A DNA stretch of 64,000 nucleotides from Chiloscyllium plagiosum (Eukaryota): positions 21,426,892 through 21,490,891 of the forward strand of contig NC_057719.1 of the NCBI RefSeq assembly GCF_004010195.1, in the 5' to 3' direction. This document shows positions 1 through 49,680 of this stretch, piece after piece. The stretch's first letter is position 1, and every line of letters begins with the position of its first letter. The notes under the pieces are model-generated. The model did not search any database, was not told the DNA's origin, and was given only the letters and a program-made list of their open reading frames with translations. Made by a program: the position numbers and the translations under genes.

Positions 1-1002
1 AGTGCTGACCCTTCCGCTGGCATGAAAAGAGTGTGGAGCGGTGGTTGTCAGGGGGATCAATGCTGGAATAATCCTGTCCAGACTCTGCCACGGGGTCAAC
101 AATCCGAATACTGGAATTGCAGTGGTCCTGGTCCTTATGAGGGCGTCCCTGGGGTAAAGGAGTTGTGGGATGACGTTGTGAGGCAGGGAGGGCCTGCTCC
201 AGATGGCGTATTTTGGATATGCGGTAATCAGGCATATTCCAAACTGCCCATGGGATGGGCTGGGGTATGCTTCCTGGGTCTAATACGACCTGCGTTCTTC
301 CTATTACCCCGGGAGGAAGGCGATGATTTGGGAGTTAAACTCTTTGACTCCCTGCGTAGGTCGCCAAGGGATATCCAAGTCGGTGATTGGGGGGATGAGT
401 GGCCACCGGCCCGTATTATTGAATACTACGGGCCTGCTACGTGGGCACAGGACGGATCATGGGGATACCGTACTCCTATCTATATGTTAAATCGAATTAT
501 CAGGCTCCAAGCAGTCGTAGAGGTCATTACTAATCAGACCGCCCTGGCCCTGGAGTTGCTGGCTAAGCAGCAGGATCAGATGAGGGCTGCTATATACCAA
601 AACCGGCTTGCCTTGGATTATCTGTTGGCCTCGGAAGGGGGCGTGTGCGTGAAGTTTAACCTGACTAACTGCTGTCTGAAAATTGACGATAATGGTAAAG
701 CGGTTTTGAAGATTTCCGATAAAATTCGGAAATTGGCCCATGTGCCGGTACAATCCTGGCGTCCTCTTGGTGGTATCGGATGGTGGGATGGTCTCCTAGG
801 TGGTAGTTGGTGGCGCACGGCGTTACTGGTGGCTGGGGGGGGCGTAGTGCTTCTACTCATCTTACCCTGCCTGATCCCCTGTGTTCAATCTTTAATCCAG
901 AAAAATATTTCCCAACTCCAGGCAGTGGCGGTACCCCAACATGGAACGCAGGAATTTAAGGTGCTGTTGCTGCGAAAGACCAAGGATTTCCCAGGCCCTT
1001 GA
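1..1002 (+). CDS. env: Endogenous retrovirus envelope glycoprotein (C-terminal SU + complete TM), ERV3/HERV-R-like gamma-type Env; 5' truncated by the window edge
   Basis: Frame is open from base 1 (SADPSAG-MKRV...) to TGA at 1000-1002. SU motif WICGNQAYSKLPMGWAGVCFLGLIRP; minimal furin site RRSPR; WPPARIIEYYGPATWAQDGSWGYRTPIYMLNRIIRLQAV block as recalled for ERV3 Env; immunosuppressive domain YQNRLALDYLLASEGGVC followed by CX7CC (CVKFNLTNCC); hydrophobic membrane anchor ALLVAGGGVVLLLILPCLIPC; short cytoplasmic tail. Confidence 0.95.
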   Translation, partial: SADPSAGMKRVWSGGCQGDQCWNNPVQTLPRGQQSEYWNCSGPGPYEGVPGVKELWDDVVRQGGPAPDGVFWICGNQAYSKLPMGWAGVCFLGLIRPAFFLLPREEGDDLGVKLFDSLRRSPRDIQVGDWGDEWPPARIIEYYGPATWAQDGSWGYRTPIYMLNRIIRLQAVVEVITNQTALALELLAKQQDQMRAAIYQNRLALDYLLASEGGVCVKFNLTNCCLKIDDNGKAVLKISDKIRKLAHVPVQSWRPLGGIGWWDGLLGGSWWRTALLVAGGGVVLLLILPCLIPCVQSLIQKNISQLQAVAVPQHGTQEFKVLLLRKTKDFPGP

Positions 1003-1035
1003 TGGGAAGAGGCTTATCTTTGTCATGCACATCTT

Positions 1036-1054
1036 AAAAAAAAAAGGGTGGAAT
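1036..1054 (+). other. Retroviral polypurine tract (PPT)
   Basis: AAAAAAAAAAGGGTGGAAT lies immediately before the TG that starts the LTR, 33 bp after the env stop. Confidence 0.85.
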
Positions 1055-1503
1055 TGTGAGAGATGATTTCGGTACAAACAATTGAGATGTGCATGACCCC
1101 AAAGTCTAAGGGGAATAGAGCCATAGGGGTAGGGTAAAACATGCTTCTCTATAATAAAGGACGAGACATCTGCTGCTACGGATTGATAAGACCACTCACA
1201 TAGACAGAGTAGAAAAACAAGTCCTTGATTGATAAGACTACAGGGTAGAAAAACAACTCGGGAAACGTCTGCTGCAGACTTTGTGATAAGGGATGGAAAA
1301 ATACTGACTGTTTAGAATGTGAACCTCGTGACTCTTTAGAGCTATAGAGGGGAGGGACTTGTCCTGTATTTAATCAGAAACATTGTTAGCCTCGGGGTGC
1401 CTTTTTCTCAGAAGGGTGGCCAACTCTGCAGACTTGCTAATAAAACTTTGTTTTCCTGAATTTGTCTAGAGCGATTATTGAGAAGCGATTTTCGTTTCTA
1501 ACA
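1055..1503 (+). mobile_element. 3' LTR of the ERV (~449 bp)
   Basis: Starts TGTGAGAGA right after the PPT and ends TTTCTAACA (imperfect TG...CA inverted termini). TATA-like TATTTAA at 1367-1373, AATAAA at 1439-1444, internal U3 repeats (GATTGATAAGAC x2, GTAGAAAAACAA x2). CR1 sequence resumes at 1504. Confidence 0.88.
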
Positions 1504-1984
1504 CTATGCATCCTAAATCTTGCCTAATCACATCATAATTGCCTTTCCCCCAGCTATAACTCTTGCCTGCGGTATATACCTATCCCTTTCCATCGTTAAA
1601 ATGAACATAACTGAATTGTGGTCACTATCACCAAAGTGCTCACCTATCTCCAAATCTAACACCTGGCCTAGTTCTTTAACCAGTACCAAATCCCATGTAA
1701 CCTCGCCTCCTGTTAGCCTGTCTACATACTGTGTCAAGAAACCCTCCCGCACACATTGCACAAAAACTGACCCATCTAAAGTCCTCGAATTATAGTGTTT
1801 CCACTCAATATTTGGAAAGTTAAAGACCCCCATAACAACTACCCTGTCATTCTCACTCCTATCCAGAATTATCTTTGCAATCCTTTCCTCTACATCTACT
1901 GAGGTAGTATGGGCTGAGGTTAGAAAGAGGAAAGAAGAGGTCACCTTGTTGGGAGTTTTCTATAGGTCTCCAAATAGTTCCAGG
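1504..1984 (-). mobile_element. CR1 LINE ORF2 endonuclease fragment with inverted 5' segment (1898-1984); host of the ERV insertion
   Basis: Minus-strand translation VVVMGVFNFPNI...DLVL...GEHFGDSDHN (APE endonuclease motifs). 1898-1984 reads TEVVWAEVRKRKEEVTLLGVFYRSPNSSR on the plus strand. Confidence 0.9.
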
Positions 1985-10347: not shown

Positions 10348-11273
10348 GTAAAACCAATGACTGCAGATGCTGGAAACCAGATTCTGGATTAGTGGTGCTG
10401 GAAGAGCACAGCAGTTCAGGCAGCATCCAAGGAGCTTCGAAATTGACGTTTCGGGCAAAAGCCCTTCATCAGGAATAAAGGCAGTGAGCCTGAAGCGTGG
10501 AGAGATAAGCTAGAGGAGGGTGGGGAGAAAGTAGCGTAGAGTACAATGGGTGAGTGGGGGAGGGGATGAAGGTGATAGGTCAGGGAGGAGAGGGTGGAGT
10601 GGATAGGTGGAAAAGGAGATAGGCAGGTAGGACAAGTCCAGACAAGTCATGGGGACAGTGCTGAGCTGGAAGTTTAGAACTAGGATGAGGTGGGGGAAGG
10701 GGAAATGAGGAAACTGTTGAAGTCCACATTGATGCCCTGAGGTTGAAGNNNNNNNNNNNNNNNNNNNNNNNNNNNNNNNNNNNNNNNNNNNNNNNNNNNN
10801 NNNNNNNNNNNNNNNNNNNNNNNNNNNNNNNNNNNNNNNNNNNNNNNNNNNNNNNNNNNNNNNNNNNNNNNNNNNNNNNNNNNNNNNNNNNNNNNNNNNN
10901 NNNNNNNNNNNNNNNNNNNNNNNNNNNNNNNNNNNNNNNNNNNNNNNNNNNNNNNNNNNNNNNNNNNNNNNNNNNNNNNNNNNNNNNNNNNNNNNNNNGG
11001 TTGGAGGGGTTGAGTCTGAGGGCGGAATTGCGGGATGTGGATGAGATGCGTTGGGGGGCATCTTTAACCACGTGGGAAGGGAAATTGCGGTCTCTAGAGA
11101 AGGAGGCCATCTGGTGTGTTCTATGGTGGAACCGCTCCTCCTGGGAGCAGATACGGCGGAGGCGGAAGAATTGGGAATACGGGATGGCATTTTTGCAAGA
11201 GGTAGGGTGGGAAGAGATGTAATCCAGGTAGCTGTGGGAGTCGGTGGGTTTGTAAAAAATGTCAGTGTCAAGT
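10348..11273 (-). mobile_element. Penelope-like retroelement, 5'-truncated (RT C-terminal region + 3' pLTR with hammerhead core); spans an N gap
   Basis: Minus-strand translation TDIFYKPTDSHSYLDYISSHPTSCKNAIPYSQFFRLRRICS is typical of PLE RT. The pLTR at 10348-10600 carries CTGATGA-AGGGC-TTTT-GCCC-GAAACGTC. 12-bp direct repeat AGAGGTGGAAAG at 10336-10347 and 11379-11390. Confidence 0.9.
10445..10472 (-). ncRNA. Minimal hammerhead ribozyme core (PLE family A)
   Basis: Reverse complement reads CUGAUGA-A-GGGC-UUUU-GCCC-GAAA-CG-UC, with the conserved HHR core, stem II and a palindromic ACGU in place of stem III. Confidence 0.7.
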
Positions 11274-11596
11274 CTGGACATTACATGCCCCCATTGGGTG
11301 TGTTTTCAGCAGATGGACACATAAAGTAGATGGCTAGTCCATGACCTTCCCACCTGTTCCAGAGCTCATTGCCATACTAGAGGTGGAAAGATGGTGGAGT
11401 CCCTGACCCATGTTCTCTTGCCCAATTAAATATCCCACAATCAGCAAAGTTGCCGTGCAGAAGTGCTTCAAATTCTCCCTCAAGGGCTGGACATTACATG
11501 CCCCCATTGGGTGTGTTTTCAGCAGATGGACACATAAAGTAGATGGCTAGTCCATGACTTTCCCACCTGTTCCTGAGCTCATTGCCATACTAGAGG
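11274..11596 (+). repeat. Direct duplication of 110 bp (11274-11383 and 11487-11596)
   Basis: ctggacattacatg...gccatactagagg occurs twice with 2 mismatches. Confidence 0.95.
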
Positions 11597-21239: not shown

Positions 21240-23550
21240 TTGTCCTAGCCATTTTCCAGTGCAGTTAGCAACTGGAGAGCAGCAAGTGTTGGGAGGGAAT
21301 GAAGTTCGTGGTGGACACAACCATCACCAACCTCTCCCTGGTACCAATTTAATCACCACACCCCCATCTCCTCCCTCCCATCCCCATCCCCTGAACCTCC
21401 GTGTCCCCTTTGACCTTGCACTGCCCTAAGAGTTCATCTTCACCAATCTCCCATGTGGAGACACATCACATTGAACTTTTCATCAGCTGTGCTCCCTCCA
21501 TGGAGACCACTGTGAAGGTGATTGCCAATAACCCAACATCCTATGGCCCAAAATGCCTTTTGCTGGTGTGCTGCTTACACCCTTGTATCTTGAATGTCCC
21601 CTCATCACCATCTGTATGCCCACCTGAACACTTGCCTCCATTTTCCAACCAGCCTTGACTGCCCTACCCCATATTTGCCCCCACATCCAATCCCAATTTG
21701 CGCATTCTTCAATAGTCAATGTGCAGACCTTTAGGACTGTATTCACCCAGTCATTTGACCATCCTTATCGAGTAGACCCCAGTCATGACTAACCAGACCC
21801 CTGACCATTGTCTCTGCATCTCCTGATCAATGGTATACAATACCCATGAGTGCTTGTGGCCATACAAGACTGACTGTTGTCCATTCCCCAGGCTGTGGCC
21901 AGTCATCTCCCTGAGTGGGACCAGCCTGAATGGACAACTGGTCATGATGAAACCTTTGGATTGTGCACAGACTGTAACCTTTACTGATGGTATTGGACCC
22001 TTTCGACTGACAGTGGTGCCCCTTGACTAGACTGAGGCCTCATATACCCTCAGCACCCACTGCCCAACATGGCTGTACAGTGTGGCTACCAGGCAGGCAG
22101 ATGGCACATTCTGTAGATGTTAGATTGATGTCTCAATGCACGATACAGCAACAGGTTAAGACCATAAGACCATAAGACATAGGAGTGGAAGTAAGGCCAT
22201 TCGGCCCATCGAGTCCACTCCGCCATTCAATCATGGCTGATGCGCATTTCAGCTCCACTTACCATTACATCCGATTTTGCCTTCTCCCTTTCAAACTGCA
22301 GACTGAACTCTATCATATTATGGTTGCTACTTCCTAAGGGTTCCCTTACTTTAAGATCTTTTATAGAGTCTGGTTCATTGCAAAGCTCTAGGTCCAGAAT
22401 AGCCTGCTCTCTTGTGGGCTCCATGACAAGCTGTTCCAAAAAGCCATCGTGTAAGCATTCCATGAATTCCCTTTCTTTAGATCCACTAACAACATTATTT
22501 ACCCAGTCCACCTGCATATTGAAGTCTCCCATGATCAATGTAACCTTGCCTTTCTGACATGCCTTCTCTATTTCCCGGTACATGTTGCGTCCCTGGTCCT
22601 GACCACTGTTAGGAGGTCTATACACAACTCCAATTATGTTTTTTTCGCCTTTGTGGTTCCTCAATTCCACCCACACAGACTCCACATCATCCGACGCTAT
22701 GTCATTCAATACCATAGATTTAATTTTGTTCTTAACTAACAAGGCAACCCCATCATAATCATTCACTATTATCTGTGCCATTAGTTCATCGGCTTTGTTA
22801 TGTATGCTACGAGCATTCAGGTAAGGCTCCCAGCCCCTGACTTCATTTAGATCCCTATTGACAAGAGGGCTGTCTCTGTGCATTTGCACAAAACAGCATA
22901 TCATACGGCAGTACTGACAACCTATAGGTTCTGGCTGAAGCAACAATGCACTAACAGATGCAGTATGGAAAGGCAAGATATGGCATTGTTGCTGCAAGCA
23001 TGGATATAGGAGCTAAATAAGCAAGCTCTAAGAGAGCAGCCCTGAGTTGCAACCTGTTTCAATCCATGAGCTGGGTGCCTGACCCAATATGCAAATTGCA
23101 GCAGTATTTCATGCTAGTTGCTAGTGTGGCCTGTAATGCAGATCTGTGCTTCCCAAATATATGTCAGTGGATCAGAGAGGTGCCATGAAGATCCTGAGAC
23201 GTTGGCAAATATCAGATGCTAATTTCTGTGGATGAGGCATGCACGCAGTTAGTGCTGGTAGATAGGTGTCTGGAGATGCTGTTTTGTTCTGAGCAACATG
23301 AAGGCTGTTCACAACCAATGGTGCCAGCTAACTGCTGTACTTCCCTATTGAAAACTGTCAGCACCTAGTTCACTCGGCAGGTTTGGTAAGATAGGAAGTT
23401 GCATGAGAATGAGGCAAAGTGTGCCATTAATAAAGTCATTAACAAGTAATAAACCTCTCTCATAGGCGGCCTGTTGAAAATCACAGCTCAGTTGTATATA
23501 AATTGGAGTGAGTTACTCCTGATGTCAAAATAGGCCTCATTAGATTTCCT
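21240..23550 (-). mobile_element. Degraded putative Harbinger-like relic interrupted by a CR1 mini-element
   Basis: Minus strand at ~22830-22890 gives SPLVNRDLNEV, similar to FADRDLKDL at 55165; 5' region resembles 18150-18280 and 54860-54930. Confidence 0.3.
22159..22822 (-). mobile_element. Internally deleted CR1: ~100 bp of 3' end fused directly to the endonuclease region
   Basis: (AAGACCAT)n tail and 3' UTR at 22159-22260, followed by ORF YLNARSI..ESVWVEL..GVVYRPPN..MGDFN..PTREQAILDL..LGSSNHNMI. No RT between them. Confidence 0.88.
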
Positions 23551-47789: not shown

Positions 47790-49680
47790 ATGAATTCTTG
47801 AAGAGTATAAAGGGTGCAGGGCCATTCTTAAGAAGGAAATTAGGAGAAAAAAAGGGGATATAAGATAGCCTCAGCAGACAAGCTTCAGGATAATCCAAAG
47901 AGATTCTGCAAATACATTAACAATGAAAGAACAACTAGGGAGAGAATAGGACCCCTTAAAGATCAATGAAGTTGTTTATACATTGAACCTCAGGAAATAG
48001 GAGTGATAATAAATAAAAAATTCATGTCAATTTTTACTATTGGAGAAAGAAATGGAGGCTAGAGAACTCAGGGGAATACATATTGATGTCTTCATAACAG
48101 TTCACATTACAGAAAAGGAAGTGTTGCAAGTCTTAGAAAACATAAATGTGGATAAATCTCCAGAACCTGATCAAGTGTATTCCAGGACATTGTGGGAAGT
48201 TAGGGAGGAAATTGAAGGGTCCCTAGCAGAGATATTTGTACCACATAAAACCATGGACGAGGTGCCGGAGGACTAGAGGATGACTCATGTTATGCCTTTG
48301 TTAATGAAAGGTTGTAAGTCTGGGAACTATAGACCTGTGAGTCTGACTTTAGTGGTGGGTAATGATGGAGGCAATTCTGAAATATTGAATTTACATGCAT
48401 TTGGAGAGGCAAAGACTGATTAAGAATAGTCAGCATGGTTTTGTGTGAAGGCAATCATGTCTCACAAACTTGATTGAGTTTTTTCAGGAAGCAACCAAAA
48501 AGCTTGATGAGGGCAGAGTGGTAGGTATTGTTAACATGGAGTTTAGTAAAGCCTTTGGCAAAGTTCCACATGGTAGACTAATTTGTAAAGATAGATCACA
48601 TGGTATTCAGGGAGAGCTTGCCAATTGGATACTAAATTGGCTTGATGATAGGAGACACAGGGTAGAGGTGGAGGATTGTTTTTCGAACTGAAGTCCTGTG
48701 ACTAGTGATGTTCCACAGGGATTGGTATTGGGTCCACATTTGTTTATCAATTACGTAAATGATTTTGATGAGAATTTAAGTGATATGGTTAATAAGTTTG
48801 TGGCTAACACCAACGTTGGTGGTATAGCGGACGGTAAAGAAGATTGTCTAAGATTACGAAGAGGTCTTGATCAAATGGTCCAATGGGCTGAGGAATGTCA
48901 GATGGAGTTTAATTTGCATAATTGCAAGGTATTGCATTTTGGTAAAACAAACAAGGGGAGGACTTATACAATTAATGTTAGGGCCTTGGGTAGTGTTGTA
49001 GAACAGAGAGATCTCAGGATTCATGGAGAAAATCCTTTCAAAGTTGCATCACAGGTTGACAGGGTGATTAAGAAGGTGAGTAGTACACCTTCATTGCCTT
49101 CAATGCTCAGACCTCTGAGTGTAGGAATTGGGATGTCATGTTAAGGTTTTACAGGATGTTAGTGAGACCTCTCCTGGAATACTGTGGGCAGTTCTTGTTA
49201 CCCTGGTTTAGGAAGGATATTATTAAATTGGAGAGGGTTCGGAGAAGATTTACCAGGATGTTGTCAGGAATGGAAGATTTGAGTTAAAAGAGGTTGGAGC
49301 ATGAGAGGTTGAGGGCTAACCTTCTCAAGGTTTATAAAACCATAGATAAGCTGATTAGCAAGTGTCTTTTCCGTCGATGGGAGATTTCAAGATTAGAGAG
49401 CATATTTTTAAGGTGAGAGGAGAAAGATTTAAAAAGGACATGAGGGGCAACTTCATTTACACAGAGAATGGTTTGTATATGGAATGAACTGCCAGAGGAA
49501 GTGTTGGATGTAGGTACAGTTGAGATATTTAAATGACACTTGGATAAGTACATGAATAAGAAGCGTTTGGAGGGATATGGGCCAAACACAAGCAAGTGGG
49601 ATTAGTTTGTTTTGGGAACATGGTTGGCACGGACATTTGAACCGAAGGGTCTGATTCCATGTTGCATGACCCTGTAACTT
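47790..49680 (+). mobile_element. CR1 LINE ORF2 (RT) and 3' UTR, degraded
   Basis: VDKSPEPDQVYSRTL, EFSKAFGKVPHGRL, DVPQGLVLGPHLF, EQRDL. Confidence 0.9.

Follow-up and report, generated by a model that had tools for sequence, protein, structure and literature searches.

Envelope proteins (Env) of the EnvR supergroup carry a CX7-9CC motif in TM and are described from all classes of tetrapods (Hotzel, bioRxiv 10.1101/2024.03.17.585361). That account is confined to tetrapods, and the accessible portion of its main text makes no mention of shark, fish, cartilaginous or Chiloscyllium. Among cartilaginous fish, multicopy endogenous retroviruses (ERVs) with gamma-type Env, a CXnCC subtype and ERV-GA.a-Cpu among them, have been reported from six species (Chen et al., bioRxiv 10.1101/2021.11.23.469661). 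ERV3, HERV and CX7 go unmentioned in the accessible main text of that study, and the family treated here may belong to its catalogue. An ERV of the lemon shark allied to human ERVs has been put down to cross-transmission (as cited in the accessible text of Han 2015, PMC4422223). In addition, NCBI holds proteins labelled "ERV3-1 Env-like" from C. punctatum (XP_072436054.1), Hemitrygon akajei, Hemiscyllium ocellatum and Narcine bancroftii. These automatic annotations belong to the same family or clade as the locus described below and share its cleavage site, CX7CC and C-terminus, to which the present copy adds private substitutions. What is already known comprises gamma-type-Env ERVs of cartilaginous fish, a shark ERV near human ERVs and the NCBI labels; no published description of an EnvR/ERV3-type env in sharks or rays was found, subscription papers and preprint supplements lying outside the search.

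The window analysed here, a stretch of 64,000 nucleotides from Chiloscyllium plagiosum, very probably begins with the 3′ terminal part of a single provirus, which belongs to a multicopy class I bamboo-shark ERV with a gamma-type EnvR Env and a syncytin-Mar1-like SU; the class I status is taken from env, the SU layout is read from relatives, and the provirus could be broken upstream. Env, PPT, an LTR with TG...CA ends and a poly(A) signal follow one another in the order of a retroviral proviral 3′ end (Table 1). The original prediction, made from the DNA letters, had named a shark host and a provirus ending in a clean PPT-LTR. Both are borne out by this order and by the nearest matches, which are C. 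punctatum Env proteins.

Table 1. Features at the proviral end of the window and in its immediate flank
Feature	Position	Strand	Remarks
3′ half of env (end of SU, whole TM)	1..1002	+	open at window edge
SU/TM cleavage site R-S-P-R, residues 120-123	358..369	+	usual state in family
TM ectodomain: WPP..YYGPATW conserved block, long HR1 helix, loop, HR2	370..759	+	
Immunosuppressive-domain-like segment, residues 187-209	559..627	+	aligns with syncytin-1 and syncytin-2
CX7CC motif C216, C224, C225	646..675	+	Val217 private to window copy
Membrane anchor, residues ~274-292, then ~40-residue tail	820..876	+	hydropathy peak 2.7
Predicted RNA stem, arms 1022-1037 / 1082-1097, looping out PPT and U3 tip	1022..1097	+	
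Polypurine tract (PPT) plus two spacer bases preceding LTR	1036..1054	+	
3′ LTR, 449 bp, TG...CA, short U3 direct repeats	1055..1503	+	
Candidate TATA-like box in U3	1343..1348	+	pattern match
AATAAA (1439) and poly(A) addition site used by family copies	1439..1460	+	RNA reads
Host LINE fragment (endonuclease domain), provirus insertion target	1504..1983	-	Pfam Exo_endo_phos_2, E 9e-5, below curated cut-off

Frame +1 is free of stops from the window edge to the stop codon at 1000-1002. The 333 codons, as originally counted, exceed the longest frame in any of 2000 shuffles (242 codons; mean 90). A Pfam match to TLV_coat covers residues 183-295 (E 9e-13). The retention of CpGs was likewise recovered, with an observed/expected ratio of 0.63 in env vs 0.23 in the rest of the window, the env value being reached by none of the 62 one-kb flank bins. 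The ISD, CX7CC and TM called intact at the outset are all present (residues 187-209, which we take to be the ISD; C216-X7-C224-C225; anchor at about 274-292), where "intact" covers the env half inside the window, the 5′ half of env, gag, pol and the 5′ LTR falling outside. An AlphaFold model of low confidence (pLDDT 56) predicts helices at residues 159-211 and 231-246, and its best-supported part is a helix at 270-310, in the anchor region. Fold searches with this model returned no match at E 0.001, the best Foldseek hits being GP2 and syncytin cores at E 0.1. No hydrophobic fusion peptide is evident 3′ of the cleavage site (best 19-mer 0.99).

The cleavage site had been regarded as a minimal furin site and a possible functional defect. 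It is the norm in the family: of 30 C. punctatum proteins with sequence at this position (35 examined), 25 carry RRSPR, which rules out RSPR as a lesion. The motif is inherited within the family and presumably functioned as a minimal furin site. CVKF in place of CGKF in the cysteine loop, also remarked on beforehand, is indeed exceptional. All 274 proteins with a recognised loop pattern (330 examined) keep the X7 spacing, none of them shares Val217, and all DNA contigs aligned there differ from the window. Val217 would be either a private change of the window copy or an assembly error.

The nearest proteins form C. punctatum Env clusters of 11, 10 and 27 members with 88-95% identity, and the closest of them is identical at 306 of 327 aligned residues (up to 94%). 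Related families were found in stingray (41 and 9 members), Narcine (37 and 3) and Hemiscyllium (5). CXXC, CX7CC and the same C-terminus occur together in 10 of the 35 C. punctatum proteins examined. In the DNA runs, the depth of a difference-free env contig was compared with that of a unique flank contig and amounted to 4819 vs 13.6 (run X1) and 2640 vs about 17 (run X5). This excess of about 150- to 350-fold gives a rough figure on the order of 10^2 copies, depth not being equal to copy number. No relative turned up in viral and metagenome contigs (0 of 6 and 0 of 37 pattern matches).

Side observations concern the variation within the family. Over 504-799, the DNA runs contain a second subfamily with an identity of about 92% (in one contig, 16 of 206 bases differ). 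Run X15, which is labelled as another organism, contains the same subfamily as the window over 1-1343, about 99% identical (0-3 differences in stretches of 126-236 bases). It has no depth on the unique flank, which may point to a closely related congener, to mixing of samples or to low coverage. Four C. punctatum envelopes (P0171, P0172, P0173 and P0261) have a common N-terminus and TM, and their stretch from CXXC to the cleavage site varies in length (199-239 residues) and in sequence, which suggests SU variants or recombination.

Transcripts of the family were detected, and they come from other copies as far as their letters tell. RNA reads over the LTR bear other copies' letters at two sites (42 of 42 and 17 of 18 minus-mate reads). 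The two or three RNA reads over env differ from the window at no fewer than 7 sites and resemble the second subfamily (about 2% of one run). For this reason, no RNA read is assignable to the window locus. The reads do locate the poly(A) site in use by the family, since A tails follow position 1456, 1457 or 1460, 12-16 bases past AATAAA, in 38 of 102 aligned RNA reads (one run, about 2% read). The family's LTR thus polyadenylates RNA. Upstream, a 16-bp inverted repeat folds as a strong stem (z -4.9; 0 of 200 shuffles); this predicted structure encloses the PPT and could affect plus-strand priming or the handling of env mRNA. One contig of run X15 runs past LTR position 1503 into a putative primer binding site with three extra letters, which we take to resemble that for tRNA-Pro. 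The names HERV-R and HERV-I, in contrast, reflect tRNA-Arg and tRNA-Ile primer binding sites. A search of the window against Rfam yielded one match, under its gathering score. For syncytin-Mar1, no SPRE element is reported in the accessible text of 10.1101/2021.03.02.433518.

Membership in the EnvR supergroup is indicated by the loop spacing, C216-X7-CC, which falls within CX7-9CC, and by clustering with ERV3-1, syncytin-Mar1 and Env-Cav1. The window Env is nested among members of this group, in trees without main-group gamma rows, and the check by TM phylogeny proposed in advance thus came out in favour of an ERV3/EnvR-type Env. Searches gave E values of about 1e-85 to 1e-90 to ERV3 and syncytin-Mar1; for syncytin-2, found in a far smaller library, the value was 4e-17. 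The CXXC of SU lies outside the window and is seen as CWVC in full-length C. punctatum relatives, at residue 195 (166 in syncytin-Mar1, 292 in chimpanzee ERV3) and about 150 residues past the predicted signal peptide, the end of which was judged by eye. From CXXC to the WPP block there are 199-239 residues in C. punctatum, 223 in syncytin-Mar1 and 191 in chimpanzee ERV3. The full-length relatives accordingly show the SU spacing of group 3 (about 150 and 190-230), which is that of syncytin-Mar1 and accompanies the CX7CC common to both, and not the group 4 layout of ERV3 (about 260 and 175).

The original prediction had stressed closeness to primate ERV3, and to this extent it stands: the Env is of the ERV3-like group, and over 124 TM residues it is identical to chimpanzee ERV3 at 92 and to macaque ERV3 at 96 (74-77%), with CX7CC in both. 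A direct special link between the shark virus and primate ERV3/HERV-R is nevertheless most improbable, although this identity speaks for it. Over the same residues syncytin-Mar1 matches at 98 and Prinia, a warbler-like passerine, at 99. Chimpanzee ERV3 is equalled or beaten, at 92 or more of 124, by 11 of the 27 other tetrapod rows, including birds, lizards, echidna, hyena and bat; across the 29 tetrapod rows tested, identity in the TM block is 64-80%. ERV3 was not recovered as sister of the window Env and stands in another subclade, with two starred branches between them (one tree). A clade of elasmobranchs plus ERV3 is 19 log units worse (AU p 0.055), that is, disfavoured without formal rejection. 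Furthermore, ERV3-1 is a single captured gene with a larger, group 4 SU N-terminus and ends before the membrane anchor that the window Env possesses. Judged on sequence, the ERV3 likeness of TM is most plausibly a matter of tight constraint across the supergroup, with no special link from shark to primate.

According to the known mechanism of gamma-type Env, a furin-like protease would cleave a precursor with a signal peptide at R-S-P-R. SU would stay attached to TM through its CXXC, known from the relatives, and the last Cys of CX7CC, the disulfide being set out in the accessible text of Chen et al. (bioRxiv 10.1101/2021.11.23.469661). Refolding of HR1 and HR2 would lead to membrane fusion, the fusion-peptide step being assumed. 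The family probably multiplied by germ-line reinfection, because many copies kept long env frames; the window copy would have gathered its private changes since then and most likely undergoes neutral drift now. That the locus is instead a captured (domesticated) shark env gene, of the syncytin or ERV3-1 kind, had been raised as an option and is very unlikely, because the family is multicopy and bound to its LTR. The open frame with a membrane anchor would suit such a gene, and the supergroup was captured several times (ERV3-1, syncytin-Mar1, Env-Cav1), but the many near-identical copies do not look like a single locus outliving its family, PPT and LTR are intact, and none of 274 relatives has Val217. 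RNA reads carrying other copies' letters also count against capture, weakly at about 2% of one run.

The history of this provirus family in its hosts was addressed with trees of 80, 28, 17 and 29 rows, hand-picked from 330-467 proteins for named hosts and coverage; the 80-row tree is a quick version, and all rows come from within the EnvR supergroup. The rows from sharks and rays, together with a single row lacking a host name, were recovered as one clade (support 95/91 and 87/85 in two trees). In the best 150 of 960 matches of the representatives search there was no clear outgroup, and divergent squamate CX8/CX9CC rows served as the root. With this root, the elasmobranch clade nests inside tetrapod lineages (enclosing branch 82/95). 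Of the 124 TM residues, stingray matches the window at 115-117 and Hemiscyllium, the sister genus of Chiloscyllium, at 102-104. For the closest C. punctatum protein, identity over the SU N-terminus is 59% and 44% to the two stingray families and 39% to Hemiscyllium. A grouping of Chiloscyllium with Hemitrygon received 96/88 in one tree and 73/89 in another, and is absent from the full-length tree. AU tests reject none of the alternatives (shark monophyly, p 0.20 and 0.40; basal elasmobranchs, p 0.055).

An elasmobranch clade nested among tetrapods with stingray as nearest neighbour suggests host jumps, and cross-class transmission somewhere in the history of the group is the favoured, though unproven, reading. 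In its explicit form, a jump of the EnvR group from tetrapods to elasmobranchs with later movement between sharks and rays, it is compatible with the proviral interpretation and has, in our estimate, about an even chance. Besides the nesting on the squamate root, the stingray TM and SU N-termini, closer than those of Hemiscyllium, and the 96/88 support for Chiloscyllium with Hemitrygon argue for it. The latter grouping, however, is weaker elsewhere and missing from the full-length tree, shark monophyly and basal elasmobranchs survive the AU tests, and the root rests on long branches. Moreover, four elasmobranch genera are named among the matches and Narcine has several lineages, so that unsampled paralogues could mimic a jump. 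Co-divergence with the jawed vertebrates under extreme constraint on the TM block is the less probable course and in our view unlikely; it would span about 450 million years. It would account for the monophyly of the elasmobranch rows, it draws on the same unrejected topologies, and a TM block 64-80% conserved in the tetrapod rows agrees with it. Yet mammals, birds and reptiles are scattered in the tree, against host phylogeny, and the host names given for the 210 matches listed (best 120 of 234 and 90 of 90, many rows lacking a host name) include no ray-finned fish. Frequent host switching is also reported for most retroviral clades (accessible text of PMC6001957). The probability left over from jumps and co-divergence goes to paralogous lineages with loss.

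As a locus, the window holds an ordinary provirus end; its value is that of a marker placing the EnvR group, which mammals have captured repeatedly, in sharks and rays. The lemon shark ERV is reportedly a pol fragment of HERV-I type, and the old claim of cross-class transmission into sharks becomes testable with whole families in place of one fragment. Tentatively, and at somewhat less than even chances, we propose that the ERV3/syncytin-Mar1 Env group entered elasmobranchs once from land vertebrates, radiated there and then jumped between bamboo sharks and stingrays. If this is true, the multicopy families with long open env frames in four genera would be the trace of a lineage whose infections of sharks and rays lasted into the geologically recent past and which may be circulating even now.

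The insertion itself had been called recent, which holds in the sense that it is relatively young by shark standards. An age of about 20 million years is nonetheless allowed, so that it need not be recent in years. Among the 29 variant sites listed in 1-1503, there are 8 at which none of the aligned DNA contigs agrees with the window; these sites were taken from the best 40 of 79 rows listed, and rare variants are lost from contigs. Eight or more private differences correspond to roughly 0.5% and, loosely, to 20-24 million years at 2.2e-10 per site per year, some of the differences perhaps being pre-integration changes or errors. This rate was assumed by Han 2015 (accessible text, PMC4422223). 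In the epaulette shark the measured mutation rate is very low, 7e-10 per generation (accessible text of PMC10587355). Because shark mutation rates are very low, an open frame with retained CpGs does not imply a recent event in years, and CpG-rich open frames in genomes that mutate this slowly can reach ages of tens of millions of years. The estimate fits the 46 orthologous ERV insertions common to Chiloscyllium species, as given in the accessible text of Chen et al. (bioRxiv 10.1101/2021.11.23.469661).

Downstream of the LTR, read depth over the LINE fragment is very high, and contig ends lie loose at both 1504 and 1983. Two DNA runs gave 57 and 54 contigs that agree with the window from 1504 on and carry other sequence to the left; we interpret them as further copies of the LINE in the flank. 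The 3′ insertion boundary at 1503/1504 is fixed by them, because LINE copies elsewhere continue leftward without the provirus. The junction of LTR and flank is spanned by none of the contigs listed (24 of 15,871 records). Within the 64-kb window no further copy of env or LTR was found. At a threshold of 150 codons, no long coding frame of the host was seen in 1504-64000, which includes 317 N. This part is rich in LINE and SINE-like repeats, for example an endonuclease at 22230-23012 and an RT at 48692-49141. A reading frame split by a gap lies at 10513-11305 on the minus strand and presumably corresponds to the C-terminal part of a Penelope-type element.
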